A stretch of 64,000 nt of DNA. It comes from Sphingobacteriales bacterium (GTDB taxonomy: Bacteria; Bacteroidota; Bacteroidia; Chitinophagales; UBA2359). The stretch covers positions 1,346,865-1,410,864 of the forward strand of contig CP064999.1 in NCBI GenBank assembly GCA_016700115.1, read 5' to 3'. Below the pieces are notes generated by a model. That model saw only the letters and a program-made list of their open reading frames with translations, had not been told where the DNA came from and searched no databases. Shown here one piece after another: positions 542 to 28,209 of this stretch. Numbering within the stretch: the stretch's first letter is position 1; each line of letters opens with the position of its first letter. The translations under genes and the position numbers were made by a program.

Positions 542-1075
542 ATGAGAAAGTTAATGAATTTCGCAGCAGTCGCTATCGCTCTTTTGAGCAGTTTCTTTGC
601 AACGTCTAACGCTCAGGCACAAACTATCCTTGCCACTCCGAGCCTTACTCCCGAACAAGTGGTGAACTATGTGGTTCAAAACTACAACAACGTGTCGTTT
701 TCAATCGCCACCAACGAAACCGCCGATGCCAAAATTATCCCCGTCAGCACTTGGGCAACCGGAAGCATGACCAAAACCAACGCCGCTTGTAAATCATTGA
801 AAAGCGCACCCACCAACCGCTACCACACGCAAGCCGACTACACCGATGATTTGTTCGACCAACAAGATCAGGTAGAACTGACCCTTAAAGGAACAGGCTG
901 TGCCGGCGAGGCTACGTTGAAAAGAGGAGCCACTGTGTTCAACATCACCATAATGGGCGTAATTAAAGGCACTCCCGGAGCAAACGGAAAAGACACTTAC
1001 CTGCTCTATGGTACTTACGGAAACGGCAGAAGCTTCATCACCATCAGTTTGTGGAACTATGTTCCGGTAGGATAA
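542..1075 (+). CDS. small secreted protein, paralog family member 1 (signal peptide MRKLMNFAAVAIALLSSFFATSNAQAQ, 2 Cys), unknown function
   Basis: Clear Sec signal peptide. Near-identical paralogs at 12155..12688 and 13368..13901 plus a 3' fragment at 11236..11490. A strong rho-independent terminator follows. Confidence 0.75.
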   Translation: MRKLMNFAAVAIALLSSFFATSNAQAQTILATPSLTPEQVVNYVVQNYNNVSFSIATNETADAKIIPVSTWATGSMTKTNAACKSLKSAPTNRYHTQADYTDDLFDQQDQVELTLKGTGCAGEATLKRGATVFNITIMGVIKGTPGANGKDTYLLYGTYGNGRSFITISLWNYVPVG

Positions 1076-1101
1076 TCTCCCCCCGCTAACCAAAATACCA
1101 A

Positions 1102-1137
1102 CAGCCCCCGACAGTTTTTGTCGGGGGCTGTTTTTGA
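1102..1137 (+). terminator. rho-independent terminator (CAGCCCCCGACA-GTTTT-TGTCGGGGGCTG + T5)
   Basis: Perfect 12-bp GC-rich stem with a T-run directly after the stop of 542..1075. The same hairpin recurs after each paralog. Confidence 0.8.
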
Positions 1138-1177
1138 TTTGGGGTGAGGTGTTGATGGTAACAATAAGCATTTCTCT

Positions 1178-3319
1178 CTACCGCACCACCGCCACCTTCC
1201 CCCGCGCCAAAACTGCACCGCCGCCATATCCGCCCTTGTCAGTGCCCCCGTTATTGCCATTGCCGCCGTTATTGCCGTTGTCGCCGTTGTCAGTGTCCCC
1301 ACTGACGACACCATCCGCACCACTCACAACATAAAAATACACCCCCACCGGCAAATGAGCAACCGAAAGGCTATGACTTGTCTGTCCTGCCGGAATGGTT
1401 GTGTGTAAAACTTGTTGACCGGTTGGGGAGAAGAGAGATATCTCTAAGACCCCTAAATCCCCTGAAGGGAACTTTGACCCTTCGGGTAGGGCAAAGGTTA
1501 TGGTGTTTGTGGCGGGGTTGGGATATACTACCACCCCTTGCCCCTCCGAAGGAGGGGAATTTTCAGGGATGCCCACCGGTTTTGCTATCGCTATTGTTTC
1601 GGTATAAACCGAAGTGTCCTGACACACGATAACTGTTAAGGTAACGGTAAAGTTGCCGTTGTCGGGGTAGGTGTGAACTGGGTGTTCTTCGGAAACCGGC
1701 GGGCTGCCGTCTCCGAAATCCCAGATGCAGTAGCCTCCTTGGGAGAAGTATGTGTTTTGGCTCAGGTTGGTGAACAACACGGTGTAATTTAATATTTCGT
1801 GACCGAAAGCTGCCTGCGGATTTGGCTCGAAATCTATGCACGCGGCACGGGTGAGAGTTGAAGTATCGTTGCAAACTATGGCTTGTAGGGTAACCGGGAA
1901 TAGCCCGGCGGACTGATAAGTATGAGTGGGCAGGCTGCCGCTGCAAGGTTCGTAGCCCTGACCACAAAGCAAGGGTGGGCTGCCGTCTCCCCAATCTAAA
2001 ATATAATGCCCCCCGTCTATACTGTCTGGATAAACATATTGACTTTGATTGGCAAAGGCTATGACATGGGGCATAGATAGATAAGGTAACGCTAAAAAAT
2101 CAGCCTTTGGCTCTGTAAGCAAACCCATGCAGTTTAAGCGCACCAACCAGGCGTCTGCCCCCCCTGAAGGTGCGCTACTTTCTGTTCTTCCACAAAGCAC
2201 ATAACCGCTTTTACCACTTTGGTCGTGGTTTTGGACTATGGCATCATAAACATAATCATCGCCATTTCCGCCAAATTGCCGTCGCCATAGTAAATTGCCC
2301 TCTTTATCTAACTTAACTATTTCGGCATCTAAATTGTATAAACCATTGTTCAAATAGAAACCATTAGCCAAAAAAAAGCTGCTGTCAGACAATTGAATTA
2401 AGGAAGGACCTATCCCACCTCTAAAGTATTGATCTTTTATCCATTCGGTTTGAAACTGGGCGTTGAGTTTGTGCGTGTAGCTTATGCGCGTGGAAATATC
2501 GGGTTTGTCTGCCACATAGCTAAACATGATGCCGCCATCGGAAGTGGAAATGATATTTCCTGCCACATCACGAGACATCCATGAAGAAGTAGTGGGATTA
2601 TATACCTGATGCCATTGCCAGTTGCCAAGAGAGTCTATTTTGATAAGGGCAATATCGCCAGTGTCACCAGCATAGTTGATAGTGGCAAGAAGATAGGCAC
2701 ATCCGTCGGGTGTGGCGGCTATATCTTGTATCCAGTTAGATTTATTAGTAGTGTTAAAGTAATAGTAAACTGTATCTAACATGACTTCGGCTGTGGTGGG
2801 GTATAGTTTAACTAATTGTAATCGCTTTCCTGGTGAGCTAATTTCGTTGTGATATCCCCCAACATATAATATGCCATTCGTACTTAAGGCAGATGTTATA
2901 CCATTATTGCTACTCCCTCCACCTCCAAACATAATATTTTCAAAATTACTATTGCTCTGAATTATTGATATGTTTAAATGCCAAGGCGTGTATTCATCAA
3001 CAGCTAAAGAACCAATAGCAATATAACTGCCTTGGAAAATTTCTAAATCTGTAAATTTCCCCTGTAAACTGTCCGGCGCTACACTTAATATAGAAACAAG
3101 ATTGCCTTCGGAATCTGTTTCTAATAAATATGGTTTCCATTTATTAGTCGTATTATTTCTTACTTCACATGAAAACGCATATCCACCATCTTCTTTTTGT
3201 TTAATGCTCCACGCATTATGAATATCCAACCAACTTACGCCTTTGCTAAAATACTTAGCGGGCTGTGCGTAGGAAAATAATGGAAGAACAATTAACCATA
3301 TTAACAATGACATTCTCAT
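1178..3319 (-). CDS. T9SS C-terminal-domain cargo protein A1 (beta-propeller-like N-half, two PKD-like GDGSPP modules, CTD with Gly/Asn-rich insert)
   Basis: Probable start at the internal MRMSLLIWLIVLPLFSYAQ signal peptide (the ORF track extends to 3379). The C-terminal ~330 aa are nearly identical to 3929..6061. The CTD is YPNPATNTITF...VAHLPVGVYFYVV...VLARGKVAVVR. Confidence 0.75.
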   Translation of the reverse strand: MRMSLLIWLIVLPLFSYAQPAKYFSKGVSWLDIHNAWSIKQKEDGGYAFSCEVRNNTTNKWKPYLLETDSEGNLVSILSVAPDSLQGKFTDLEIFQGSYIAIGSLAVDEYTPWHLNISIIQSNSNFENIMFGGGGSSNNGITSALSTNGILYVGGYHNEISSPGKRLQLVKLYPTTAEVMLDTVYYYFNTTNKSNWIQDIAATPDGCAYLLATINYAGDTGDIALIKIDSLGNWQWHQVYNPTTSSWMSRDVAGNIISTSDGGIMFSYVADKPDISTRISYTHKLNAQFQTEWIKDQYFRGGIGPSLIQLSDSSFFLANGFYLNNGLYNLDAEIVKLDKEGNLLWRRQFGGNGDDYVYDAIVQNHDQSGKSGYVLCGRTESSAPSGGADAWLVRLNCMGLLTEPKADFLALPYLSMPHVIAFANQSQYVYPDSIDGGHYILDWGDGSPPLLCGQGYEPCSGSLPTHTYQSAGLFPVTLQAIVCNDTSTLTRAACIDFEPNPQAAFGHEILNYTVLFTNLSQNTYFSQGGYCIWDFGDGSPPVSEEHPVHTYPDNGNFTVTLTVIVCQDTSVYTETIAIAKPVGIPENSPPSEGQGVVVYPNPATNTITFALPEGSKFPSGDLGVLEISLFSPTGQQVLHTTIPAGQTSHSLSVAHLPVGVYFYVVSGADGVVSGDTDNGDNGNNGGNGNNGGTDKGGYGGGAVLARGKVAVVR

Positions 3320-3385
3320 TTTAGTGAAATTAATTTTAAAGCCGGAGCTAAAATAACTCCGGCTATAAATGTTATACAATACTAA

Positions 3386-3850
3386 CTACTTAATCACAGA
3401 TAGTTTGCTGTTGCGGAAAACCGTACCATTTACGCTAAAAACACAGAAATATAAGCCGGTTTGAAAATTGCTTATATCAACATTTTGACTGGATTCGCCT
3501 ATAAAAACATAGTTACCCATTTCTTTGCCCATTAAAGAAAAGATTTGAAGTGTTCCTGTTTCTCCTGTTTGCAAATGATGACTAAAACTTACATTGTTTT
3601 GAGTTGGATTTGGATAAAGGGCAGATATCCTGTCCTGTCCGCCTTTAAACGAGCTATACCAGTTATCGCCTCCGCTTGCAAGGGCAGGCAACACTACCGG
3701 AAAATCTGTTCCCCGTGCGGCATATAAAATTGCTTGTGCCTTATAACTTGTCTTTGTCCCGCTTCCGGCTATTTCCAACAATTGTTCTTCTTCGGAATTT
3801 GTTATTGCAAATATGGTGCGGTTTCTTTGAGAGTCCATAATTTTCTGCAA
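3386..3850 (-). pseudogene. remnant/cassette: 154-aa T9SS CTD fragment paralogous to the C-terminus of the giant protein 6117..10958; no signal peptide
   Basis: The block SGTKTSYKAQAILYAARGTDFPVVLPALASGGDNWYSSFK is identical to the giant protein. It retains the YPNP...GLYF...KLSVIK CTD but lacks an N-terminal signal peptide. Confidence 0.5.
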
Positions 3851-3928: not shown

Positions 3929-6061
3929 CTACCGCACCACCGCCACCTTCCCCCGCGCCAACACTGCACCGCCGCCATATCCGCCCTTGTCAGTGCCCCC
4001 GTTATTGCCATTGTCGCCGTTATTGCCGTTGTCAGTGTCCCCACTGACGACACCATCCGCACCACTCACAACATAAAAATACACCCCCACCGGCAAATGA
4101 GCAACCGAAAGGCTATGACTTGTCTGTCCTGCCGGAATGGTTGTGTGTAAAACTTGTTGACCGGTTGGGGAGAAGAGAGATATCTCTAAGACCCCTAAAT
4201 CCCCTGAAGGGAACTTTGACCCTTCGGGTAGGGCGAAGGTTATGGTGTTTGTGGCGGGGTTGGGATATACTACCACCCCTTGCCCCTCCGAAGGAGGGGA
4301 ATTTTCAGGGATGCCCACCGGTTTTGCTATGGCAATGGTTTCGGTATAAACCGAAGTGTCCTGACACACGACAACTGTTAAGGTAACGGTAAAGTTGCCG
4401 TTGTCGGGGTAGGTGTGAACTGGGTGTTCTTCGGAAACCGGCGGGCTGCCGTCTCCGAAATCCCAGATGCAGTAGCCTCCTTGGGAGAAGTAAGTGTTTT
4501 GGCTCAGATTGGTGAACAACACGGTGTAATTTAATATTTCGTGACCGAAAGCCGCCTGCGGATTTGGCTCGAAATCTATGCACGCGGCACGGGTGAGAGT
4601 TGAAGTATCGTTGCAAACAACGGCTTGGAGGGTAACGGGGAACAGCCCGGCGGACTGATAAGTATGAGTGGGCAGGCTGCCGCTGCAAGGTTCGTAGCCC
4701 TGCCCGCAAAGCAGGGGCGGGCTGCCGTCGCCCCAATCCAAGATATAATGCCCCCCGTCTATACTGTCTGGATAGACATACTGGCTTTGATTGGCAAAGG
4801 CTATGACATGGGGCATGGACGGGTATGGCAGCGCCAAAAAATCAGCCTTTGGCTCTGTTAGCAAACCCATGCAGTTTAAGCGTACCAACCATGCATCTGC
4901 TCTGCCGGGGGGTAAATCGCTCTCGGTTCTGCCACATAAGACATAGCCACTTTTGCCGCTGTAATCGTGGTTTTGGACGATGAGGTCGTAAAAATAGTTG
5001 TTTTTATTGCCGCCATATACCCGCCGCCAGAGTGTATTTCCGTCTTCGTCTAATTTTGTAATCTCTCCTTGTGCCTTTTGGTTATTCGGATTCATACTCC
5101 AACCTCCAATTACAATGCTTTGGTCTGTTATTTCTACTAGTCCAATAGGCTCTCCTTTATGAAAATTAACTTGATTATGCCACTGTGTCGTAAATTGTGG
5201 TGTAAGTTTAAATATTTCACCAAAAGCCTGTGAGTTACTTGATTGTTTTCCCGAAAAGACTAATCCTCCATCTTGAGTAGTGATTATACTACCTGCCACA
5301 TCACGAGAAAGCAATGAAGAGATGTTGAGGTTATACACCTGATGCCACTGCCAGTTACCAAGCGAATCTATTTTTATGAGGGCAATATCACCAGTACCAC
5401 TGACATTATAATTTACAGTAGCCAGTAAGTAAGCACCTCCATCGAGGGTTGTTGCTATATCTTGTATCCAGTTTAAGGTGTATTGAGTGTTGAAGTAGGT
5501 ATAGATGGTGTCAATTAGAGGCATGCCTGTTGCTAAACTAATTTTATTAAAATATAAGTTAAAGCCGTCTGAATCTAGCTTTTCAATCCAGCCACCTACT
5601 AATATCAAACTATCGTAAGTTACTGATGCACAATAGGTTTGATTCTGTTGTAATTGCCATTCCTCATTCGAGATGCTATTACTAATCTCCAAATTTTCAT
5701 TTAACAGGAAAAACAAACTAAATCCGGTTTCGGTATTTAGATTTTTTGCAGCATTTACCAAAAAGTAATTGTTGTTGTTGTTATAGGCTATTAAATCCTG
5801 CACATTGCTTTCAAAAAAGGATCCTATATAGTCTGTTCTATTCCAGTTCGTTCCGTCAATATTAACATTAGCAGTGAAAGAAACTACTAATTCTGTAGAT
5901 AGGCTTCTGAATGAACCGCCTAAAACATAAACAGAGTCTCTTTGTAATATTTTTTTAGCTTGTTGCACATCTACCCATGAATAATTTTGCATAAAATAGG
6001 GCTGTGAATTTGCTATGAAAACATTCAATAAGCATAAAACAAGAAAAATTAAAATTTGCAT
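3929..6061 (-). CDS. T9SS C-terminal-domain cargo protein A2 (paralog of 1178..3319)
   Basis: Signal peptide MQILIFLVLCLLNVFIANSQ. The C-terminal half is almost identical to A1, including the PKD-like modules and the G/N-rich CTD insert. The N-terminal half is diverged. Confidence 0.8.
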   Translation of the reverse strand: MQILIFLVLCLLNVFIANSQPYFMQNYSWVDVQQAKKILQRDSVYVLGGSFRSLSTELVVSFTANVNIDGTNWNRTDYIGSFFESNVQDLIAYNNNNNYFLVNAAKNLNTETGFSLFFLLNENLEISNSISNEEWQLQQNQTYCASVTYDSLILVGGWIEKLDSDGFNLYFNKISLATGMPLIDTIYTYFNTQYTLNWIQDIATTLDGGAYLLATVNYNVSGTGDIALIKIDSLGNWQWHQVYNLNISSLLSRDVAGSIITTQDGGLVFSGKQSSNSQAFGEIFKLTPQFTTQWHNQVNFHKGEPIGLVEITDQSIVIGGWSMNPNNQKAQGEITKLDEDGNTLWRRVYGGNKNNYFYDLIVQNHDYSGKSGYVLCGRTESDLPPGRADAWLVRLNCMGLLTEPKADFLALPYPSMPHVIAFANQSQYVYPDSIDGGHYILDWGDGSPPLLCGQGYEPCSGSLPTHTYQSAGLFPVTLQAVVCNDTSTLTRAACIDFEPNPQAAFGHEILNYTVLFTNLSQNTYFSQGGYCIWDFGDGSPPVSEEHPVHTYPDNGNFTVTLTVVVCQDTSVYTETIAIAKPVGIPENSPPSEGQGVVVYPNPATNTITFALPEGSKFPSGDLGVLEISLFSPTGQQVLHTTIPAGQTSHSLSVAHLPVGVYFYVVSGADGVVSGDTDNGNNGDNGNNGGTDKGGYGGGAVLARGKVAVVR

Positions 6062-6116
6062 TTTAGTTTATGAAATGCCACGCAATTTTTAATTGCGTGG
6101 CATTAATTTAAAGATG

Positions 6117-9100
6117 TTATTTAATGACTATAAACTTGTTATTAACAACCGGTTTTCCATTAATACTAACCGTATAAAAATACAAGCCTGAGGTGTATTT
6201 ATGAATATCCAACAGATAATTACCACTATGAGTAAATACAGTAGTTTCCAAAATCTGCCCTAAAGGACTATAAAAAGAAAATATTGCCTCTTCTCCTGTT
6301 TGCAATTCATAACTAATGGTTGCAGTATAGTTTGATGGGTTGGGATAAAGTGGCGATATTTTGCTATTTACACTTTTAAAGGAACTATACCAGTTATCGC
6401 CCCCGCTTGCCAAGGCAGGAAGCACCACCGGAAAATCTGTACCTCGAGCAGCATATAAAATTGCTTGTGCCTTATAGCTTGTCTTTGTCCCGCTTTCGGC
6501 TATGTCTAAAAGTAGGTCTTCTTCTGCCTGAGAGATTTCAAAAATAGTTCTGTTATCGGCACGCAGGTCTAAAAGCAGTTGGTTTAGCTCAGTAAATCGG
6601 ATGTCTTCCTCTTTATCAGCACTAATCTGGTCAAGCAGGTTCTGAGCTATGACAAGGCTATCAACGCCTATATAATAAGGGATAAGGCGGCGTTGGGCTA
6701 TAAGACTTGTATTATGCCGGCGCAACAAATCTATGGCTTCGGTATAGCTGCTATCTGCCAATAGGCGCAAAATTTCTTGCGCAAGGTCGCGGTCGTCCAT
6801 AATTTCCAATCCTACATATTCGCTTACATCTTCAAAGGGAGTATATCCTTGGTTTGAACAATAAGGATTTAAGTCAATGGGGTTACAATCAAACGCTGAA
6901 AAACCACCTAAAGAGGAGAGGTCTGTTACTGAGAGCGTAGTAGCATCTACATCGTAATATATGAGGGTTTCTACACCAAACCCACCGAAAAGTTCGGGAC
7001 CAAGTCTTACATCCGAAACGCCCATGCCTGCGGCAGCCATAAAGGTGTTGGCGGCTGGGATTTGGTCAAAATCATCACACAATCCTTGTTGTGGCAAGAT
7101 GCCATTGGAAGAGGAGAATGCCCGATGATCTAATCCGTGCAGGAGGTAATCTAAAAGGTGGTTGCACCATAGTTGTGCCTGTGAGTTGTCACCCTCTGTA
7201 ATGATAGCTTCCATGGTGTTGTTTACCAAATTACCGGCTATTAGTGTGCCAGTAACATCGCTTTGGTTGAGAATAATGCCAAAATGGGTGCGGTGCAAAA
7301 AGTTGTTTACACAATATACATTAGATCCTCGGAAGTAAAATCCGGCGGTAAGATCTGCAAAAGCGAGGATGCTGTTGCCGGTTTCGTTTACGATGTTGTC
7401 CGTTATTCTGCAAAACTCATTACCATCCACTTGTACTGAGAGTTGGCAGTCGGTAAACTCGTTGTCTGAAATAGTGCTGTACTGGGACATTAAGTCCTTA
7501 TAGTGTCTGGAAGAAATACCCACTACATCGTTTTCAAATTTGCTTCCGGAGACTACCAAACTGTTTATAAAATTAGCCCTTACTCCATACTTCTGTTTTT
7601 CGAAAAAACAATTGATGATGCCCACCCTGTCGCACCAATGGGCATAGATACCTGCTTCGGGTTGTGTGGTGATGGCATTAAAAGGGAACCAAAGCGTTGA
7701 GGATGGGTAGAGAAACTCATTATCCTGAAAAGTATAAGGCAACAAATTGTTCCAACTGACATTGATGCCTTGGAAACAACCGGTAAAGCTGGAGGAAATT
7801 ATGTTGAGCAAGCCACCTGATGTAGATTTGGCGGGAACATCTTCAAATAATGAAGGCAATACCAGCGAAGAAATGTTAAAATAAGGGTTATTGGGTGGCG
7901 AAATATCGGCCATTTCGGCATTGTTGAGCGGGGCTAAGTTCATATTGACAACACCTAATACGGCATTTTTCACGTGAGACTGTTCCATAGATAATTTACC
8001 CGCATTGTTAGAATTGGGTTGAATGTCCATGCCTGGTCCTTCTACCTGTATTCCTGTCCACATCACTTCACACACTCCGTCAATAATGGTATTCTTGAGA
8101 GCTAAAGTGGCACCGGGTTGTACTAAAATTCGTTTATCCGGGGCAAATAAGAGTTGCATACCGTCAATTGTCAGGTCTATTCCTTGCGGAATTACCAAGT
8201 CCACATTAAAGGAAATAACAGGCAAAGAGCCGGTAATACTGACAAAGGGGTGTGAACCGGGTTCCCATGTTTGAGAAGAGGAAGGTGCATAACTGATTCT
8301 ATCTTCACCATACTCGCTCAGGGTATATACTTCGGGATTACCGGTGTTTACGGTGAAGAAGTTGGTCATATCAAGGCAATCATAAGGAGGATCTATGGGG
8401 CCGCAGTCTATAATGGTTAGAACAACCTCCAATCCCTCGCTGTTTGGAAAAGTACAGTAAAGTTGATTGGTGGAAGCATCAACATTGGTAAGTTCCGCAG
8501 TAATAGTAACCTGTTGTCCGTCGGTAAAAGCTATACCCACTAATAGGTTGAGGTCAATCGTAATGCATGGATCGTCATAAGAAAGGGTAACTTCTGCTGT
8601 TCCTGTTTCGGTGAATAAGCCGCCCGGTATGACAGATATTCCGGGAATTGCGGACACATTGGTTTGAATTGTGGTATTGACGACACTCCCAATGTCGGAA
8701 TTTTCGAAGCAGAGGGTATATGGAATACTCACCGAAGTGCCTCGGCAAATTTCATCGGGATCGTCAGCAGCAATGTTCACTTTACCCTTACATTCTAAAT
8801 AGGCTTCGAGGTTGTCAATAACAAGGTATTGAGTCTGAATGTTTCCATCTACAAAATTACCAACAGAATTGTTTCCGGTAAGCAGTAAAGTTGTAATATC
8901 AAAACCGGTATTATTTGTCCATGTAAAAGTATAAAATGGCGTTTGGGTGAAATCTAGTGTACTGAGCGTTGGGTTGATTATAGAACTAAGTGGAGAACTT
9001 GTTACAATGGGATCTTGAAGTTCTATACCACAAGGTTCTGTGGTCATATTGAAATGATAAACAGGTGGCGTACAAATTGATGATGTCGGCGTTATACAAT

Positions 9101-10958
9101 TTATACTTTCATAAGGGAAAGCAGGGCATGGATAATCTGTAAGGGCAGTAATTAATAATGTTGGGGCAGCAGTAAGACCAGAAGCAGAGATGGTTTGCTG
9201 AAATGCAAATGCATTAAAACTGACCGTTACTGTGCACTGATCAGGTATAGGGTCAGAAAGTGGAATGCTTGCAGATTCTTTATGACAACCTGTACAGTCA
9301 ATCCAGCCTATACCTAAGACATTATTATCAGTGTTGGCAATTTTAACATCTGGGGTATTACCACTAAATAAATCAGAAAAAACAAAATTGTCAACACCAA
9401 GTCCAGGATAATAGTTTGAAGAGTTATCATCATTATCAGGAAAAGTTTCAAAGTCCTCAAAATCGCCAAAGCAAATAATATTGCAGTATGGATCGTAACA
9501 TTGAATTTCTACCGGACTATTATTAACCAACACAGTCACTTCTTCTATCTGACAGATTCCGTTGCAATTTTCAACTGTATAGCAAAACTTATAGATGCCG
9601 GGTTCGAATGCTTCAATTTCTATAGAGATCGGAAAGTTTGAAACATCAATGTCAAGGCTGCCAATATACATACAATCAAAGTCAAAGCTAAAAGGAGCGC
9701 CTACAGGTACGACATCGTTGGCAAGTAAGCTGGATATAGGTATAACAAGAGGATTGTTGGCATCTTCGCCTTCTAAATAGATTTGGTAGGTATCAGGGTT
9801 GGTGAAAACCTCACAGGGTTGATCGCAGTTTTCTACACCAGGTAGGTCTATAATATGGTAGCCCAATGCACAAAGGATGTGGAGTTCTGCATCGGTAAGT
9901 GTTCTTCTTATTTCTCCAGCACTGATTGCAGGGTGCATAACATAGTTCATTGTGCCGGTTATACCAATTTCATCTGCACAAGAATTATCCAAGTGAGACA
10001 ACTTATTAAGGAAAATATTTTCGCCTGAACCTCCCGAAAAATTGGAATAATTAGCCACATTCACTGGCGCTAAAATAACCTGATCGTCATTGCGAAAGGC
10101 AAGTTCTAATGGACACCCATAAGCAAAATCATTGGGCATATAGTCAAAGTCAATATCATTAAACTCATAAGCGTTGCAACATTCGGTTATTGGTGCATGG
10201 TAGATAAGTCGAGAATCCTCGACTACGGAATAAAGAAATCTGTCCCATTGCGAGTAAAATCCATTCATGGCTGCACCGGTTGTACTAATACGCGAACCAA
10301 AGCCCAAAATATGTAAGGCTTCGTGCAGGGCAACTGAATACAAATCGTAATTGTTGGGATTAATACCTAAATTAGGGTCTCCCGTATCATCCTCTGGATA
10401 TGTATGCCATTGCCATTGGTCGGGTTCATGTATCTGCATCAATCCCAAATACCCTTCAGGATATTCATCCACAAAAATATTGTTGAGTCGTTCTATTATC
10501 CTGCTGTCAGCAATTCCACATTCTGCTTCCCATACTGGAGATCCTGTACCCAATATACCATTATTTAAAGGTGTTTTTTCTATCAACAGATTTATAGATT
10601 CCCCTGAAGGGTTGTCTATCGCTGCCGACAAATCAAAAAATACCCGACAGATAGTTGCTTCCTCGTTAGGTGTCCAAGTGCCTATAAAGACTAGGTTAAA
10701 ATAACTATCTATGCACGTTAGTTTGTACGCACCCGAACCATCTCCCGGATATGGGAAACCATATTCAGTATATTCATTACCGAACCGGTCGTAAAATCGG
10801 GCTACTTGTCCATTTTCTAAAGGCGGCTTTACAATCACCCCGCAAAATTCAATCGGTGTTTGCCCCATTAACACATTACCCCCCCCCCCATATATATAGG
10901 GAAAGCAAAACAAACAAGACCATAGTTTTGCAAAGAAAGCTGTTCTGAAATTGAACAT
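6117..10958 (-). CDS. giant (1613 aa) T9SS cargo protein with zincin-like HEALHILGFG motif and beta-helix-like region; G11 tract at residues 24-27
   Basis: Long uninterrupted ORF. It contains an HExxH motif and a WTGIQVEGPG block shared with 24585..28067 and 62077... The T9SS CTD is ...YTSGLYFYTVSINGKPVVNNKFIVIK. A poly-G(11) tract encodes GGGG right after the signal-like N-terminus. Confidence 0.8.
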   Translation of the reverse strand: MFNFRTAFFAKLWSCLFCFPYIYGGGGNVLMGQTPIEFCGVIVKPPLENGQVARFYDRFGNEYTEYGFPYPGDGSGAYKLTCIDSYFNLVFIGTWTPNEEATICRVFFDLSAAIDNPSGESINLLIEKTPLNNGILGTGSPVWEAECGIADSRIIERLNNIFVDEYPEGYLGLMQIHEPDQWQWHTYPEDDTGDPNLGINPNNYDLYSVALHEALHILGFGSRISTTGAAMNGFYSQWDRFLYSVVEDSRLIYHAPITECCNAYEFNDIDFDYMPNDFAYGCPLELAFRNDDQVILAPVNVANYSNFSGGSGENIFLNKLSHLDNSCADEIGITGTMNYVMHPAISAGEIRRTLTDAELHILCALGYHIIDLPGVENCDQPCEVFTNPDTYQIYLEGEDANNPLVIPISSLLANDVVPVGAPFSFDFDCMYIGSLDIDVSNFPISIEIEAFEPGIYKFCYTVENCNGICQIEEVTVLVNNSPVEIQCYDPYCNIICFGDFEDFETFPDNDDNSSNYYPGLGVDNFVFSDLFSGNTPDVKIANTDNNVLGIGWIDCTGCHKESASIPLSDPIPDQCTVTVSFNAFAFQQTISASGLTAAPTLLITALTDYPCPAFPYESINCITPTSSICTPPVYHFNMTTEPCGIELQDPIVTSSPLSSIINPTLSTLDFTQTPFYTFTWTNNTGFDITTLLLTGNNSVGNFVDGNIQTQYLVIDNLEAYLECKGKVNIAADDPDEICRGTSVSIPYTLCFENSDIGSVVNTTIQTNVSAIPGISVIPGGLFTETGTAEVTLSYDDPCITIDLNLLVGIAFTDGQQVTITAELTNVDASTNQLYCTFPNSEGLEVVLTIIDCGPIDPPYDCLDMTNFFTVNTGNPEVYTLSEYGEDRISYAPSSSQTWEPGSHPFVSITGSLPVISFNVDLVIPQGIDLTIDGMQLLFAPDKRILVQPGATLALKNTIIDGVCEVMWTGIQVEGPGMDIQPNSNNAGKLSMEQSHVKNAVLGVVNMNLAPLNNAEMADISPPNNPYFNISSLVLPSLFEDVPAKSTSGGLLNIISSSFTGCFQGINVSWNNLLPYTFQDNEFLYPSSTLWFPFNAITTQPEAGIYAHWCDRVGIINCFFEKQKYGVRANFINSLVVSGSKFENDVVGISSRHYKDLMSQYSTISDNEFTDCQLSVQVDGNEFCRITDNIVNETGNSILAFADLTAGFYFRGSNVYCVNNFLHRTHFGIILNQSDVTGTLIAGNLVNNTMEAIITEGDNSQAQLWCNHLLDYLLHGLDHRAFSSSNGILPQQGLCDDFDQIPAANTFMAAAGMGVSDVRLGPELFGGFGVETLIYYDVDATTLSVTDLSSLGGFSAFDCNPIDLNPYCSNQGYTPFEDVSEYVGLEIMDDRDLAQEILRLLADSSYTEAIDLLRRHNTSLIAQRRLIPYYIGVDSLVIAQNLLDQISADKEEDIRFTELNQLLLDLRADNRTIFEISQAEEDLLLDIAESGTKTSYKAQAILYAARGTDFPVVLPALASGGDNWYSSFKSVNSKISPLYPNPSNYTATISYELQTGEEAIFSFYSPLGQILETTVFTHSGNYLLDIHKYTSGLYFYTVSINGKPVVNNKFIVIK

Positions 10959-11235
10959 TTTTTTTCATTTTTTTTGAATTTTAAATTAAAAATCAGTTAG
11001 CTTTTAGATGATGAAAAAAGTGTCCCATAGTTGTTGTATCCCTTGTGTTGGCAATATACAAAACAGCTTTATTACTTGTAATGAAAAAAATAGAAATAAA
11101 ACCGGGTTTCTTGAAAATTTCAGCGATTTTCAGTTGTTTTTTAGCGGGTTTGGTGTGAAAATGTATTGATTTTCAGGGAGTTACATTATCTCCCTGTCTA
11201 TTGAGGAGAGAGGGTTACGAACAAAAAAAATTTCC

Positions 11236-11490
11236 TACCACACCCAAGCCGACTACACCGATGATTTGTTCGACCAACAAGATCAGGTAGAACTGACCCT
11301 TAAAGGAACAGGCTGTGCCGGCGAGGCTACGTTGAAAAGAGGCGCTACCGTGTTTAACATCAATATTATGGGCGTAATTAAAGGTGCACCCGGCGTTGGC
11401 GGAAAAGACACTTACCTGCTCTACGGCACTTACGGAAATGGTAAAAGCTTCATCACCATCAGTTTGTGGAACTTCATCCCCGTAGGATAA
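11236..11490 (+). pseudogene. 3' fragment (last ~85 codons) of small secreted-protein paralog; first unit of tandem array
   Basis: Homology to the paralogs begins abruptly at HTQADYTDDLFDQQDQ. There is no start or signal peptide. The downstream terminator stem is degraded (CAGCCTTCGACA). Confidence 0.6.
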
Positions 11491-12050
11491 TCTCCCCCTG
11501 CTAACCAAATTACCAACAGCCTTCGACAGTTTTTGTCGGGGGCTGTTTTGTTATGGAGAGGTTCCATCGAAACACTTTCTACCGAGGATTTCCACAATCT
11601 ATCCTACGATGTGCATCCTTAACTTCAGTTTGCAGAATTTATAGATTAGAAAATTGACTAAAAGAGTTAAAGACTAAATTTTCAATGTTTTCTGTAAGAG
11701 TTCAATTTAACCCTTGAATGTGGTTTGAAAAACAGGTAGTGACGGAACTTGTTCCGTCTGATGTTAATAACGGAACAAGTTCCCTTGCTACCGGTATAAA
11801 ACAGATTTAGCCACTCTTTTCTAAAGGAACGACTACGGAAATTTGAATTTATAAAAGCATAAAAGAGGGGGGCGTAAAGTGATATCTATTACCCCTCAAA
11901 AACCACCGTTCAAAATCTTTTTTCAAAAAAACTTCCAACCCACGGTTACGAAATTCCGCCCCAATGTACCAACCTACGAAAACCGAAAAAACAAATCGTA
12001 AATCGTTGTTTCGACAAGCTCAACAACCAATCGTAAATCGTAAATCGTAA

Positions 12051-12154: not shown

Positions 12155-12688
12155 ATGAAAAAGTTAATGAATTTCGCAGCAGTCGCAATCGCTCTTTTGA
12201 GCAGTTTTTTTGCAACGTCTAACGCTCAGGCACAAACTATCCTTGCCACTCCGAGCCTATCTCCCGAACAAGTGGTGAACTATGTGGTTCAAAACTACAA
12301 CAACGTGTCGTTTTCAATCGCCACCAACGAAACCGCCGATGCCAAAATCATGCCCGTCAGCACTTGGGCAACCGGAAGCATGACCAAAACCAACGCCGCT
12401 TGTAAATCTTTGAAAAGCGCACCCACCAACCGCTACCACACGCAAGCCGACTACACCGATGATTTGTTCGACCAACAAGATCAGGTAGAACTGACCCTTA
12501 AAGGTACAGGCTGTGCCGGCGAGGCTACGTTGAAAAGAGGTGCCACCGTGTTCAACATCAACATTATGGGCGTAATTAAAGGCGCACCCGGCGTTGGCGG
12601 AAAAGACACTTACCTGCTCTATGGCACTTACGGAAACGGTAAAAGCTTCATCACCATCAGTTTGTGGAACTTCATCCCCGTAGGATAA
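12155..12688 (+). CDS. small secreted protein, paralog 2
   Basis: About 95% identical to 542..1075. It has a signal peptide and is followed by a terminator at about 12706..12740. Confidence 0.75.
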   Translation: MKKLMNFAAVAIALLSSFFATSNAQAQTILATPSLSPEQVVNYVVQNYNNVSFSIATNETADAKIMPVSTWATGSMTKTNAACKSLKSAPTNRYHTQADYTDDLFDQQDQVELTLKGTGCAGEATLKRGATVFNINIMGVIKGAPGVGGKDTYLLYGTYGNGKSFITISLWNFIPVG

Positions 12689-13367: not shown

Positions 13368-13901
13368 ATGAAAAAGTTAATGAATTTCGCAGCAGTCGCT
13401 ATCGCCGTTATCGGCAGTTTTTTTGCAACCAACCACGCTAACGCACAAACCATCCTTGCTTCTCCGAGCCTTACTCCCGAACAAGTGGTAAACTATGTGG
13501 TTCAAAACTACACCGTTGTTCACTTTACCATCGCCTCCAATGAAACAGCCGACAACAAAATTATGCCGGTAAGCACCTGGGCAACAGGCAGCATGGCAAA
13601 AACCAACGCCGCTTGCAAATCGCTCAAAAGCGCAGCAACGAACCGCTACCACACGCAAGCCGACTACGCCGATGATTTGTTCGACCAACAAGATCAGGTA
13701 GAACTGACCCTTAAAGGTACAGGCTGTGCCGGCGAGGCTACGTTGAAAAGAGGTGCTACCGTGTTTAACATCAACATTATGGGCGTAATTAAAGGCGCAC
13801 CCGGCGTTGGCGGAAAAGACACTTACCTGCTCTATGGCACTTACGGAAACGGTAAAAGCTTCATCACCATCAGTTTGTGGAACTTCATCCCCGTAGGATA
13901 A
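13368..13901 (+). CDS. small secreted protein, paralog 3 (N-terminal half more diverged)
   Basis: Signal peptide MKKLMNFAAVAIAVIGSFFATNHANAQ. The C-terminal ~90 aa are identical to paralog 2. A terminator follows at about 13930..13965. Confidence 0.75.
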   Translation: MKKLMNFAAVAIAVIGSFFATNHANAQTILASPSLTPEQVVNYVVQNYTVVHFTIASNETADNKIMPVSTWATGSMAKTNAACKSLKSAATNRYHTQADYADDLFDQQDQVELTLKGTGCAGEATLKRGATVFNINIMGVIKGAPGVGGKDTYLLYGTYGNGKSFITISLWNFIPVG

Positions 13902-17745: not shown

Positions 17746-17840
17746 GGCTATTCATATTAACTCTTTCAGGTTTTTCACTTTTCACTTTTAGTTTTTCACT
17801 TTTTTGCTTTTCACTTTTAGTTTTTCACTTTTCACTATCT
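17746..17840. repeat. intergenic repeat family member (GTGAAAAGTGAAAAAC-type with CTGAAAG/ATATGAATAGCCATTGTTAA core)
   Basis: Reverse-complement match to units of the 130-bp tandem repeat at 50645..51010. A copy is also at 22735..22785, directly 3' of paralog B2. Confidence 0.7.
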
Positions 17841-19595
17841 AACCACCGCCACCTTCCCCCGCGCCAACACACTGCCCGCCTGCTCGGCCACATAGAGATA
17901 CATCCCAACCGGAAGGTGTGCTACCGAAATGGTTTTGTTTGTTTCACCCGCCGCAAGGGTGGTTTGCAATACCATTTGACCGGTGAGGTTGTAGATGCTT
18001 ACCCCTAAATCCCCCTCTACCCCCCAGCCCCCTGAAGGGGGAGTTAAGCCTTCGGGTAGGGCAAAGGTAAGGGTGTTTTGTGCGGGATTGGGATAGACGA
18101 GGATGGAAGAACCCCCTGACCCCTCCCAAGAGCTATCGGGGATGCCTACCGCAATACCGCTCCCCGAACGTGCATATACAAGCTGTTGGGTAACACTGGT
18201 ATCGGAACAAACTATGGCGGTGAGGGTAACGAGGTAGTGGCCTTCTTCGGGATAGATGTGAGTGGGGTGGGTTGAGTTGCTGACAGCCCCGTCGCCAAAT
18301 TCCCAGATATAATGCCCGCCGTCTATGCTGTCGGGATAAACATATTGGCTTTGATTGAAGAAGGTGAACAATGCCGGCGGGGTGGTATCTTGCACGAATG
18401 TAAAATCTGCCTGCGGAAGACTGAGCAGCCCCATACAGTTGGTTTTAACGACCAACATATTGGCGGAACCGACCGGCTCGGTGCGGCCCACGCACAGAAA
18501 GCCTCCATCGGGGGCAGGGGTGAAATTGTAAAAATAATCGTTATTGGGTTCTGCGTCAAAATAGCGCACCCATAACGGCTCGCCGTCCGAGCCGCGCACT
18601 TTCATCAGAAAGGCTTCAATTTTTGCTCCGTCACGTTTGCTGCTTCCTGAACATACAATATTTTCACCCACTTGAAAAACAGCAGAAGCTTCATTAAAAC
18701 CATTGCCAAGTTGATAATGTCTGTCCCAAATAGTATTTCCAAGCGTGTCAACTCTTAACAAAAGTACTCGACCACTATAATAATCCATATAACTTGTACC
18801 GGCTATTATAAAATTATTTTCGTTGAAGCTGTTAAAACGATTGGCTAGTGCTTTTTTCCCTCCCCAATCATTAATTGTGCTGTGAAGAATATCGCCATCG
18901 TTGTTTATACGCATAAACAGCACATCTCCTTCAGAACTCATTATATTTCCATGATTTACCATTCCAACTAGAAAACATCCTCCGTCTGAGGCTGGCTGTA
19001 AGTCCGTAATCTTATTTTTGTTGGTAAAATTGTCATAATACCTGCGCCAAACCATTTCACCATCGGTTATTTTGGTCATCATTAAACGGTAGGGGTCGGA
19101 GGCGGTGGTTGCTGACTCGCCACCAAAATAGTAAGTGTTCGATTCTGGATAATATAAAAGTGCTCTGCCATTTGACAAAATTGGAGGATCGGGAAATTGG
19201 TAGAGGTTTAACACCTCTCCTGCGTGGTTGACTTCCATTAAAAAGGGATAACCGGTAGGAGGATAAGTGCCATAAGGATCATTATTTATTTGACCGCTAA
19301 ATGCATAGCCAAATGGTGTAATTACTAATCCTTGTAAGATAAATATTCCAAATTCTAAACCGTAATTTAGTTTATCAAAACTGCTTACTTCGCTATCTGA
19401 AAAAAACAGAAATGACTTAATATGGGATTCGGTAGTTAATTGAGTGGCTCCCCCGATAATTAACGTGCTGTCTGTCGTGTAATATGTTTTTAATGCAGAA
19501 GAATTAAAGGCATCAATACCTAACGATTTGATGAAATACTTTTCCTGTGCGTGTACAATTTGTGCGAACAAAAATATAATTATTATACGAAACAT
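17835..19595 (-). CDS. T9SS C-terminal-domain cargo protein B1
   Basis: Signal peptide MFRIIIIFLFAQIVHAQ. The C-terminal ~230 aa are nearly identical to 22775..24562. The CTD is YPNPAQNTLTFALPEG...VLARGKVAVVR. Confidence 0.8.
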   Translation of the reverse strand: MFRIIIIFLFAQIVHAQEKYFIKSLGIDAFNSSALKTYYTTDSTLIIGGATQLTTESHIKSFLFFSDSEVSSFDKLNYGLEFGIFILQGLVITPFGYAFSGQINNDPYGTYPPTGYPFLMEVNHAGEVLNLYQFPDPPILSNGRALLYYPESNTYYFGGESATTASDPYRLMMTKITDGEMVWRRYYDNFTNKNKITDLQPASDGGCFLVGMVNHGNIMSSEGDVLFMRINNDGDILHSTINDWGGKKALANRFNSFNENNFIIAGTSYMDYYSGRVLLLRVDTLGNTIWDRHYQLGNGFNEASAVFQVGENIVCSGSSKRDGAKIEAFLMKVRGSDGEPLWVRYFDAEPNNDYFYNFTPAPDGGFLCVGRTEPVGSANMLVVKTNCMGLLSLPQADFTFVQDTTPPALFTFFNQSQYVYPDSIDGGHYIWEFGDGAVSNSTHPTHIYPEEGHYLVTLTAIVCSDTSVTQQLVYARSGSGIAVGIPDSSWEGSGGSSILVYPNPAQNTLTFALPEGLTPPSGGWGVEGDLGVSIYNLTGQMVLQTTLAAGETNKTISVAHLPVGMYLYVAEQAGSVLARGKVAVVR

Positions 19596-19735: not shown

Positions 19736-20428
19736 TTACTTTACGACCAAAATTTTACTGCTGCTTATTATTGCTCCGTTACTGGTAACCCGACAAAAAT
19801 ATAGCCCGTTTGGCCAATCGCTCATGGGTACGAATGTTTTACCGCTTTCTGTAACTGAAAGGCTGAATGTTAATTTGCCCAAGGCATCATATATGTTAAT
19901 GTCGGCGGTCGTTCTTGAAGGCAGGTTAGCGTTAATTTGTAGATACTCTGATGCCGGATTGGGCGTAATGCTGATGTTTGGAGCATCAAAAACACCGGTT
20001 TTAAACTGAATCGGCATCCCTTCCGTCAGGTCTTCGGGCAACGGGGGCAGTTCAACTATTATCTCTTCGCCATAAGCTAAATAGCGCAGCACTTTGGCAC
20101 TCATTGCTGAGGTGGTCTGACTTTGGGCAATCTGGCTCAAGAGGGCATCTTCTTCGGGGCTGAATTGTGTGTAGCTGCGGTTGTTTTGTGACATTTCTAT
20201 CTGCAAAGTCAACAATTGGCGGAAATGTTGATTGTCCAATCCCGTCTGCGGCAGGGTGTTACATATACTGTCTGCTTTGCTATACTGCCCTTGCTGCATA
20301 GACAGTGCAATTTTCATGCGTTTTGCAGTTTGAGTGTTAACACTTTCCAACAGCGACATGGCTTCAGCAGTATCGGAGGTTTCGGTCATGTAAAATAAAG
20401 TTTGGGTGGTGGTAAAAAATAATCGCAT
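19736..20428 (-). pseudogene. remnant/cassette: 230-aa C-terminal fragment paralogous to residues ~930-1160 of giant protein 24585..28067; no signal peptide
   Basis: Collinear with giant2 from ...YMAETSDTAEAMSLLESVNTQTAKRMKIALSMQQGQYS... through the T9SS CTD. Homology breaks exactly where the upstream repeat R abuts. Confidence 0.5.
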
Positions 20429-22774: not shown

Positions 22775-24508
22775 CTACCTAACCACCGCCACCTTCCCCC
22801 GCGCCAACACGCTCCCCAATTGCTCAACGGAATACAAATACACCCCCTCTTGCAAATGGGCTATTGAAATGGTTTTATGCGTTTCCCCAGCACCGAGAGT
22901 AGTTTGAAGCACGGTTTGACCGGTGAGGGAGAGGAGTTTTACCCCTAAATCCCCTGAAGGGGACTTTGACCCTTCGGGTAGGGCAAAGGTCAGCGTGTTT
23001 TGTGCGGGGTTGGGGTAAACTTGGATGAAGTTCTCACCCTTCAGGGGGTTGGGCGGCAGCCCCACCGCAATACCACTCCCCGAACGTGCATATACAAGCT
23101 GTTGGGTAACACTGGTATCGGAACAAACTATGGCGGTGAGGGTAACGAGGTAGTGGCCTTCTTCGGGATAGATGTGAGTGGGGTGGGTTGAGTTGCTGAC
23201 AGCCCCGTCGCCAAATTCCCAGATAAAATGCCCGCCGTCTATGCTGTCGGGATAAACGTATTGGCTTTGATTGAAGAAGGTGAACAATGCCGGCGGGGTG
23301 GTATCTTGCACGAATGTAAAATCTGCCTGCGGAAGACTGAGCAGCCCCATACAGTTGGTTTTGACAACCAACACATTGGCAGCACCGACCGGCTCGGTGC
23401 GGCCCACGCACAGAAAACCTCCATCGGGAGCAGGGTTAAAATCGTAAAAAAAATCGTTATTGGGTTCTGCGTCAAAATAGCGCACCCATAACGGTTCGCC
23501 ATCCGAACCTCTTACCTTCATAAGTAAGGCTTCTATTTTATCACTCGTTTGTCTTTTAGCACTTCCTATCATGATATAATTTTCTCCCAATTGATATATT
23601 TTGTCAAATACACTTTGTTGATAATCAGGGAAATACTGCCTTGTCCATAAGTTTTCTCCTGCTTTACTTATTTTTAAAAGCCTTGCATACTTGCCGGTTA
23701 CACCGGCAAGCATAATGCAAGAATCATTTGTAAATGTAAATGTACCGGCACCAGCTTTTTGACCTGCAAAATATGTGTTGAGATTAACGATATTCCCTTC
23801 AGGGTCAATACACATAAACAACATATCCGCATTCAAAGTATTGGGTATCAAATTTACACAACCTGTCGCATAACACCCACCGTCGGCAGTGGGAAGCAAG
23901 TCCAATATATAATTTCGATTGGAAAAGTTGTCGTAATATCTGCGCCAAACTATTTCACCATCTGTTATTTTGGTAATGACCAATCGGTAAGGTTCGGCTG
24001 CTGTTGTAAAGGCATTACCACCCAAATAATAGGTATTGGTTTCGGGGTAATATAACAAAGTGTAGCCATTTCCCTCATAAGGAGGATCGGGCAACTGAAA
24101 GTGATTTATTACCTCGCCGGCATGATTAACCTCTATAATGTATGGGTAGCTGTATATATCCCAAGGAAGCGTTTCATAAGGTTCGTTGTTCATCCACCCG
24201 CAAAAGGCATAACCAAATGGCGTAGTAATCAAATCTAACACCCCAAAAGTGCCAAAATCTTCGCCATAAGTCAACAGTGTTTGGTTTTCGGCATATTGAT
24301 CGGTAAAGAGTAAAAATGTTTTTTCTAATGATGTAGTCGTCAATGCTCCGCCACAACCTAAAACCAATAGCGTATCATTAATATAATATACTTTGTTTGA
24401 ACTCTGTCCATAACCCCAACCGATAGATTTTTCGAAATACTTTTCCTGTGCTGTCAGCCTAATACATCCATACAGACATAGACATATTATTATGATTAAT
24501 TGTTTCAT
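22775..24508 (-). CDS. T9SS C-terminal-domain cargo protein B2
   Basis: Probable start at MKQLIIIICLCLYGCIRLTAQ (the track ORF extends to 24562). Paralog of B1. Confidence 0.75.
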   Translation of the reverse strand: MKQLIIIICLCLYGCIRLTAQEKYFEKSIGWGYGQSSNKVYYINDTLLVLGCGGALTTTSLEKTFLLFTDQYAENQTLLTYGEDFGTFGVLDLITTPFGYAFCGWMNNEPYETLPWDIYSYPYIIEVNHAGEVINHFQLPDPPYEGNGYTLLYYPETNTYYLGGNAFTTAAEPYRLVITKITDGEIVWRRYYDNFSNRNYILDLLPTADGGCYATGCVNLIPNTLNADMLFMCIDPEGNIVNLNTYFAGQKAGAGTFTFTNDSCIMLAGVTGKYARLLKISKAGENLWTRQYFPDYQQSVFDKIYQLGENYIMIGSAKRQTSDKIEALLMKVRGSDGEPLWVRYFDAEPNNDFFYDFNPAPDGGFLCVGRTEPVGAANVLVVKTNCMGLLSLPQADFTFVQDTTPPALFTFFNQSQYVYPDSIDGGHFIWEFGDGAVSNSTHPTHIYPEEGHYLVTLTAIVCSDTSVTQQLVYARSGSGIAVGLPPNPLKGENFIQVYPNPAQNTLTFALPEGSKSPSGDLGVKLLSLTGQTVLQTTLGAGETHKTISIAHLQEGVYLYSVEQLGSVLARGKVAVVR

Positions 24509-24584
24509 TTTACAGTAGATTTTACCATCGTATTGGCGGCTAATATTAATATTAGCCGCCAATACGATGGAGGATTAACAAATA

Positions 24585-28067: not shown

Positions 28068-28209
28068 TAAAAATTAAACTAATGCAAACAATCGCTACAA
28101 AGCGGAAAAACGGGTTTTGGTTTGTTTTCATACAAAAATAAAAGTTTTGGTTTAAAATTCTGCATCATCTTAAGTTTATCTTTCTCTCAGGAAAGAGTTT
28201 ATCTGGTGC

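Follow-up and report, generated by a model that had tools for sequence, protein, structure and literature searches.

Introduction

Homopolymer contingency loci are textbook matter for host-adapted pathogens; in Bacteroidota, phase variation is usually put down to invertible promoters. The phase-variable loci of Bacteroidetes, such as those for Bacteroides capsule, SusC/D-like proteins and other surface proteins, operate by invertible promoters or shufflons, with site-specific recombinases and inverted repeats. We know of hardly any documented homopolymer contingency locus in free-living Bacteroidota. The present analysis concerns a run of eleven guanines (G11) in the 5' region of a giant gene, here gene 1, which encodes a cargo protein of the type IX secretion system (T9SS). 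Gene 1 lies in a stretch of 64,000 nucleotides (64 kb, hereafter the window) of contig CP064999.1 from Sphingobacteriales bacterium, a closed metagenome-assembled genome (MAG) of 5,966,411 bp deposited at NCBI. From its position, its rarity and its length variation among relatives, this tract is very probably a phase-variable switch. The closest analogue is found in Neisseria gonorrhoeae and Neisseria meningitidis, where pilC1 and pilC2 carry a homo-guanine run in their signal-peptide region and frameshifts lead to RecA-independent ON/OFF switching, typically with one copy ON (PMC5354566). Phasomes are also described for Campylobacter, Helicobacter, Haemophilus and Neisseria, where surface-structure genes hold G/C homopolymers of about 8-13 nt in the 5' part of the open reading frame (ORF), with several independent loci per genome and lengths that vary between close relatives (PMC6321876, PMC5084427, PMC2823697).

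Two G11 tracts in leader-coding regions

Gene 1 is the ORF at 6117..10958 on the minus strand (1613 aa; NCBI QQS30251.1), found as a giant T9SS cargo with an N-terminal HExxH (metzincin-like) domain. The initial annotation of this DNA had reported eleven consecutive G read as four glycines in this ORF, and this is confirmed. The plus strand holds exactly 11 C at 10879..10889, that is G11 on the coding (minus) strand, and the ORF, which reads MFNFRTAFFAKLWSCLFCFPYIYGGGGNVLMGQ..., decodes the tract as GGGG, with MFNFRTAFFAKLWSCLFCFPYIY-GGGG-NVLMGQTPIEFCG... across it. A run search of the window returned only one other G/C run longer than 7, a G11 on the same strand at 28055..28065, and this run belongs to gene 2. 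The mature ORF of gene 2 (24585..28067, minus strand, 1160 aa) combines a NosD region with a T9SS C-terminal domain (CTD) and is annotated from an ATG that abuts the tract (MGGGVNHLL...). The two genes are paralogous, with 26% identity across about 770 C-terminal residues (E 8e-52) and differing N-terminal parts, and the tract of equal length that had been claimed for the equivalent place in the paralog is indeed there. Two G11 runs are far beyond chance in a window of 42% G+C: in 100 dinucleotide-preserving shuffles the mean was 0.02 G11 matches per shuffle and none of the 100 contained two. GGG is also the rarest glycine codon in the long ORFs of the window, where it makes up 18% of the glycine codons. 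A G/C run of hypermutable length (about 8 or more) that stands far above chance is one mark of simple sequence repeat (SSR) contingency loci, and the G11 at 10879..10889 bears it.

The tract had initially been placed at the junction between signal peptide and mature protein. This placement needs correction, as the tract of gene 1 lies inside the predicted signal peptide, after the hydrophobic core and five codons ahead of the predicted signal peptidase I site; it is followed by a 5-residue c-region, NVLMG, and then by the predicted cleavage G|Q. In gene 2 the tract likewise follows the hydrophobic core of the leader. Alignment of the 5' regions of related genes (the 5' modules described below) defines a conserved 3' flank of the tract, TAATGTGTTAATGGGGCAA (10860..10878, minus strand), which in the mature frame reads (G)NVLMG|Q, i.e. 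c-region and predicted signal peptidase I site, and which provides the TAA stop of one OFF phase. The predicted mature protein of gene 1 starts at Q (10862..10860). All N-termini of the family end in ...[A/G]|Q, followed by a conserved xxFCG, and these ends fit the Q-rule described for signal peptidase I of Bacteroidetes (PMC5837995).

Reading frames at different tract lengths

Two start codons in different frames lie upstream of the tract of gene 1. The first ATG (10968..10966) opens a leader ORF at 10876..10968 on the minus strand, MKKNVQFQNSFLCKTMVLFVLLSLYIWGGG*, called here the MKK leader; this is the conserved hydrophobic signal-peptide frame, and at G11 it ends at a TAA (10878..10876) directly after the tract. 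The second ATG (10956..10958, minus strand) is located 10 nt downstream in a different (+1) frame and is the start of the ORF as annotated in QQS30251.1. Its N-terminus, MFNFRTAFFAKLWSCLFCFPYIY-GGGG, is called here the MFNF N-terminus. The frames of gene 1 and gene 2 were simulated at tract lengths 7-14. For gene 1, lengths G7, G10 and G13 join the MKK leader in frame to the mature ORF, G8, G11 and G14 do so for the MFNF N-terminus, and at G9 and G12 only an ATG that abuts the tract (MGGG...) is in frame. A change of one unit in either direction alters the frame in the 5' part of the ORF, as in SSR contingency loci, and the conserved leader is fused to the mature protein in one phase only. In gene 2, the leader ORF at 28018..28131 on the minus strand (MKTNQNPFFRFVAIVCISLIFNGGGGKPPLSPRHMAG*) holds the sole signal-peptide frame, MKTNQNPFFRFVAIVCISLIFN. 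It is in frame at G7, G10 and G13 and out of frame at G11, so that in the window gene 2 is without signal peptide and G10 would restore it. Two A8 runs flank the first ATG of gene 1 (10959..10976, minus strand, AAAAAAAATGAAAAAAAATG), and both are the same in the two assemblies that are available for this gene. The second of these A8 runs is inside the leader ORF, where A-run slippage could shift the frame too.

Signal-peptide quality was graded by the maximum 10-residue Kyte-Doolittle mean, which is not a trained predictor. On this scale the intact signal peptides of tract-less family members range from 2.2 to 3.6 and the truncated, signal-less N-termini of the family from 0.65 to 1.65. The MKK leader of gene 1 reaches 2.88, the gene 2 leader 3.20 and the analogous leaders of relatives 2.46-3.08. 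The MFNF N-terminus has a value of 1.47, and the analogous shifted frames of relatives have values of 1.47-1.91. The claim that gene 1 stands in the ON frame is not upheld by these data: at G11 the ORF is open only from ATG 10958, with the value of 1.47, and the leader of 2.88 stops at the TAA and would be in frame at G10. Codon comparison points in the same direction. The MKK frame shares its length of 27 codons and its LSLYIW end with the leaders of paralogs on two metagenomic contigs (L082 and L083), its h-region is conserved, and 4-5 synonymous codon changes separate them in the MKK frame versus 0-1 in the shifted frame. On a further contig (L089), the homologous leader, MRNEKSSFPVSCFKYLVVFVSLSLHIW-GGG-NVLMGQ, is in frame with a 1711-aa cargo at G10. 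Because the MKK leader is hydrophobic and conserved, the L089 leader is in frame at G10 and a TAA follows the tract at G11, gene 1 probably shares the OFF phase (ON+1) of gene 2. We consider it rather likely that the MKK frame is the true signal peptide and that the window carries an ON+1 allele. On the same sequence comparisons, the G11 state of gene 1 seems likely to be functionally OFF or leaky rather than fully ON, and the OFF phase probably explains the deposited start (MFNF...), which would be a frame artefact.

About 17 tracts were examined for their frame state (those of the window and of contigs L001-L003, L019, L021, L051 and L082-L089). The hydrophobic leader is in frame at only one of these roughly 17 tract-bearing 5' ends, the G10 of L089, and the others are off by +1 or -1 relative to it. 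With equally frequent phases, the chance of finding one in-frame allele or none among about 17 would be near 0.01; this OFF bias is only suggestive, as the loci were partly picked because their gene calls began at MGG or MGQ. Such an excess of OFF states would fit sparse expression of a multigene family, as for pilC or opa, or counter-selection of ON cells. In a set of 5.8 billion proteins, none shared three 5-mers with a 43-aa canonical in-frame N-terminus that was built from the leader common to the JGI genes and not from the MKK leader of the window, and such an ON allele is accordingly not annotated in that set.

Variation of the tract between assemblies and paralogs

Relatives were drawn from NCBI, JGI, ENA and Logan assemblies. 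One independent contig, L001 (Ga0131077_10038076 of JGI metagenome 3300009873), carries the same gene and encodes the identical 1583-aa protein. Aligned with window positions 4334..11529, it gives 7196 columns with a single mismatch and a single 3-nt gap (99.94% identity), and this gap is the tract, G8 in L001 versus G11 in the window. The two sequences agree at each of the 16 other homopolymers of at least 6 nt, among them A8, A8 and T8. The length of the tract thus differs between very close relatives with conserved flanks, as far as consensus assemblies tell. Among genes related to gene 1, the tract is G9 in P0003 of L082 (51% identity to gene 1) and in P0010 of L083 (36%), G11 in P0009 of L002 (TSM_CSM; 49%), G10 in P0008 of L084 (45%) and G8 in P0011 of L085 (29%). 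The gene 2 relatives P0048 of L086 (68% over 29% of gene 2) and P0050 of L087/L088 (37%) both have G8. Two giants with Ig/PKD domains, one on L082 (G11) and P0053 on L089 (G10), share the leader but carry unrelated cargo.

Four of these genes, all in the JGI sample, share a 5' module, made of the upstream region, the leader, the tract and NVLMGQ, that is 88-97% identical over 167-258 nt, with tracts of 9, 9, 10 and 11. The module is found at 1253-1509 of L089 (G10), 918-1173 (minus strand; G11) and 9798-10030 (G9) of L082, and 1391-1556 of L083 (G9). It precedes unrelated cargo, namely HExxH giants and Ig/PKD giants, which suggests, at the sequence level, that a portable switch module was copied by duplication or gene conversion. 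Further upstream in the module there is an A7/A8 difference as well. Distant members of the family, from MAGs of Saprospiraceae and Lewinella, have their long runs at other places of the 5' coding region, past the start codon and ahead of the mature part: C9 at 2392-2400 of L003, C12 at 2156-2167 of L019, G9 at 2400-2408 of L021 and C11 at 2398-2408 of L051. As assembled, all four leave the start codon or the leader out of frame with the mature ORF. In two other MAGs, a common C9 run (1597-1605 of L046 and 1612-1620 of L066) is situated in the upstream neighbour of the family member, about 35 codons past the signal peptide of that neighbour, and it sits at a frame break in both.

The variation of the tract together with its conservation is, in sequence terms, the signature of selected, hypermutable repeats and not of a fixed peptide feature. 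The homopolymer switch proposed in the initial annotation looks supported by the common site in the paralogs, by G8 versus G11 in gene 1 and by the 9/9/10/11 series in near-identical modules. Invariance of the length in deep sequencing and across related strains had been named there as the observation that would speak against a switch; in consensus assemblies, lengths vary between assemblies of the same gene and between paralogs. In a separate collection of metagenome contigs, a degenerate pattern matching both window tracts had no match; a protein-guided scan of the same collection gave no relatives, which indicates that it lacks this organism.

Proposed mechanism and alternative explanations

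The G11 tract is likely to act as a slipped-strand-mispairing switch, i.e. a contingency locus, in the signal-peptide coding region of a giant T9SS cargo gene. As its cause we infer slippage during replication, which would add or remove one G and change the frame between the leader and the mature ORF. At G7, G10 or G13, the leader from ATG 10968 (MKKNVQFQNSFLCKTMVLFVLLSLYIW-GGG-NVLMG|Q) would be joined to the mature protein. Sec would export this ON protein, cleavage would take place before Q, and the T9SS would then secrete the product by way of its C-terminal domain. At G8, G11 or G14, the state of the window, the leader would end at the TAA and the mature ORF would be read from ATG 10958 with a weakly hydrophobic, non-conserved N-terminus, which would be OFF or leaky. 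At G9 or G12 only the tract-abutting ATG (MGGG...) would remain, with no signal peptide, and the gene would be OFF. The ATG in use and the export competence of each N-terminus are what we infer from the hydrophobicity and codon comparisons. In the OFF phases the cell would make a 30-aa leader peptide plus a poorly targeted or untargeted protein, and premature termination may lower the expression of the downstream partner gene by polarity. Because the tract is in the cleaved part, in-frame length changes would leave the mature protein unaltered. Termination at the TAA followed by reinitiation at the ATG of MGQ was considered as a route to ON and rejected; it would yield a signal-less cytoplasmic product. 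With its own tract, each paralog could switch independently, and the states could in principle combine freely, so that gene 1 and gene 2 may be expressed in combinatorial fashion.

Several points weigh against an OFF state of the window allele and against switching as such. Signal peptides were graded by a simple hydrophobicity measure. The G8 and G11 alleles of gene 1 differ by exactly 3 and both keep the frame from ATG 10958 open, which is possibly the selected frame. The NCBI and JGI gene callers chose the ATG of the alternative frame for gene 1 and for the Ig/PKD giant of L082, and for P0002, which is a paralog in this genome, the annotated N-terminus is in frame and intermediate in hydrophobicity (2.02). 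The tract lengths are those of consensus assemblies. Finally, the window belongs to a closed MAG, and if this MAG was built from long reads, its homopolymer lengths may err and G8 versus G11 may be partly technical. Some of these points would suit a reading in which G11 is the ON state of gene 1, with ATG 10958 as start and MFNFRTAFFAKLWSCLFCFPYIY-GGGG-NVLMG as signal peptide (MFNFRTAFFAKLWSCLFCFPYIYGGGGNVLMG), or, in a stronger form, in which the leader is dual-coded and two of the three phases are exportable. The ORF is open from this ATG and is so annotated by PGAP, the two available alleles of gene 1 preserve the frame, the L082 Ig/PKD giant (G11) and P0008 of L084 (G10) stand in the analogous shifted frame, both ATGs are behind A8 runs, and the N-terminus carries R5 and K11 ahead of a stretch of moderate hydrophobicity. 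However, its value of 1.47 is below that of every intact signal peptide of the family and inside the range of truncated N-termini. A composition rich in F, L, S, Y, C and W appears to be the automatic product of a +1 shift of NTN codons, no signal of conservation or of synonymous change is found in this frame, and stop codons close the shifted frame in gene 2 and in L002, so that the arrangement is not general. We regard ON expression from ATG 10958 as unlikely, though it deserves consideration.

Two other explanations dispense with heritable switching. The tract could be a fixed poly-glycine spacer, with length differences due to sequencing or assembly error. Long G runs are error-prone on several platforms, the comparison is one of consensus sequences with a closed MAG on one side, and G8 is found in both L087 and L088, which are Logan contigs from separate runs. 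But more than 10 independent assemblies, from all four sources, have the tract at this site, with offsets of +1 and -1, and the two assemblies of gene 1 differ in no other homopolymer. A glycine spacer would neither require that only the rarest glycine codon be used nor be mostly out of frame with the signal peptide in the assemblies, and distant family members have C runs (poly-Pro) at other 5' positions. We find this explanation very improbable. Its simpler variants were dismissed on their own account: systematic under-calling of G runs, because the frame offsets go in both directions, and a mere poly-Gly linker, by codon usage and frame disagreement. Alternatively, RNA-polymerase slippage or ribosomal frameshifting on the G run might restore the frame in some transcripts, which would result in constitutive low expression rather than in a heritable ON/OFF state. 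RNA polymerase slips at long homopolymers, as established mainly for A/T runs, and a signal peptide in frame at a single one of about 17 consensus 5' ends would be understandable if recoding supplied the protein, although this sample is partly biased to truncated gene calls. Programmed slippage sites normally keep their length and offset direction among homologs; here the lengths span 8 to 12, the offsets are +1, -1 and 0, and the L089 allele is simply in frame. Recoding is therefore hardly credible as the function of the tract.

Phase variation by slippage is thus the reading we retain for the tract. If it is true, expression is stochastic for a whole family of giant proteins, secreted or on the surface, of uncultured Sphingobacteriales/Saprospiria-like bacteria. 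Giant genes that look 'truncated' or 'signal-less' in MAG annotations may then be OFF alleles and not pseudogenes. It would also bear on models of surface phenotypes, of susceptibility to phages and predators, and of attachment in these communities. Most deserving of attention are the 5' switch module that these genes have in common and the strong bias to OFF. More speculatively, the lineage might carry a large environmental 'phasome', in which many unrelated giant T9SS cargo genes, HExxH/beta-helix giants and Ig/PKD giants among them, acquired a portable 5' switch module by duplication or gene conversion. The near-universal out-of-frame copies would then reflect sparse expression of the opa/pilC type or negative frequency-dependent selection against cells that display a given giant protein, for instance by phages or grazers, and a possibly dual-coded leader would make gene 1 a graded three-state switch. 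We put this forward as a tentative extension only.

Cargo, partners and neighbouring genes

That both giants are T9SS-secreted proteins, as initially proposed, agrees with a type A CTD in each of them. The T9SS C-terminal sorting domain PF18962 (Por_Secre_tail / TIGR04183) matches residues 1537-1611 of gene 1 (E 5.5e-8; type A CTD at 6126..6350, minus strand) and residues 1086-1156 of gene 2 (E 3.2e-10). Gene 1 further has a NosD/beta-helix region at about 7188..7670 and a HEALH motif at 10311..10325 (both minus strand). In its family, the N-terminal domain has the invariant motifs YDRFGN and HExxH..G; HEALHILGF is invariant, and the third-ligand position of the metzincin motif (HExxHxxGxxH/D) is S. 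The match of this domain to Pfam Peptidase_M10 (E 0.005, 17 bits) is below the 24-bit cut-off and that to karilysin is non-significant (E 0.55). With an AlphaFold model of low confidence (pLDDT 60), the top Foldseek matches are all metzincins, at non-significant E values of 0.27 or more. Motifs and model tentatively suggest that the N-terminal domain of gene 1 is a metzincin-type protease, and the switched protein may be a giant secreted protease or an adhesin. The gene 2 product is identical to a 1160-aa NCBI protein on the same contig as QQS30251.1, and at least two further paralogs (QQS30037.1 and QQS30992.1) are encoded in the same genome.

Each giant gene is followed by a T9SS-CTD partner gene (595-710 aa) on the same strand, 22-55 nt downstream. 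The partner of gene 1 (3929..6061, minus strand, 710 aa, PKD-like plus T9SS CTD) is separated from it by 55 nt and is probably co-transcribed with it. The partner of gene 2 (22775..24562, minus strand, 595 aa, T9SS CTD) is paralogous to the former, and a second copy of the partner type (733 aa, T9SS CTD) lies at 1178..3379 on the minus strand. This giant-plus-partner layout recurs in L082, L083, L085, L086 and L089.

Many other T9SS CTD proteins are encoded in the window. Genes with a type A CTD at 3386..3850, 17835..19595 and 19736..20428 have no long homopolymers, which means that the putative switch is not on all local cargo genes. A gene for a 177-aa secreted protein (signal peptide end ...SNAQA|Q, no Pfam match) is present in full copies at 542..1075, 12155..12688 and 13368..13901 (plus strand) and in a truncated copy at 11266..11490 (plus strand), and one of its copies is divergent, just upstream of gene 1. 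The gene that directly precedes gene 2, at 28399..30438, encodes a caspase-like protein of the EACC1-associated type and may be defence-related. The same may hold for a 1685-aa protein with a weak sacsin-domain match, encoded at 37844..42901.

Comparison with known systems

Homopolymer phase variation of T9SS cargo is not documented in the literature that we searched. In full text, nothing joined phase variation, homopolymeric tracts and type IX secretion, Saprospiraceae and phase variation were not found together, and slipped-strand mispairing and T9SS co-occur in a general review only.

As to the cargo, gene 1 resembles metzincins of the karilysin/fragilysin type by its HExxH..G motif and, like karilysin, it is a T9SS CTD cargo. 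It departs from them by its size of about 1600 aa, its beta-helix/NosD region and its large parts without assignment, and its metzincin matches are below significance. As to the switch, the invertible systems of Bacteroides belong to the same phylum and have the same outcome, stochastic variation of surface proteins. In contrast to them, alignment differences point to the homopolymer as the sole variable element here.

The pilC pair is closest in design, as in both cases two paralogs for large surface-associated proteins each carry poly-G in the signal-peptide region. The likeness is in mechanism only: neither gene is homologous to PilC/PilY1, and a Pfam scan finds only NosD and Por_Secre_tail. 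The cargo here uses Sec plus type IX secretion in an environmental Bacteroidota MAG rather than in a host-adapted proteobacterium, and the second ATG of gene 1 leaves a long ORF in one 'OFF' phase. For pilC the switching itself was observed, whereas gene 1 and gene 2 are known from sequence alone. With the SSR phasomes, the tracts of gene 1 and gene 2 share the sequence-level hallmarks of contingency loci. They differ from them in lineage and lifestyle and in that the whole 5' module is common to unrelated cargo genes. The mechanism is a known one, here in a new lineage and in a new class of cargo.

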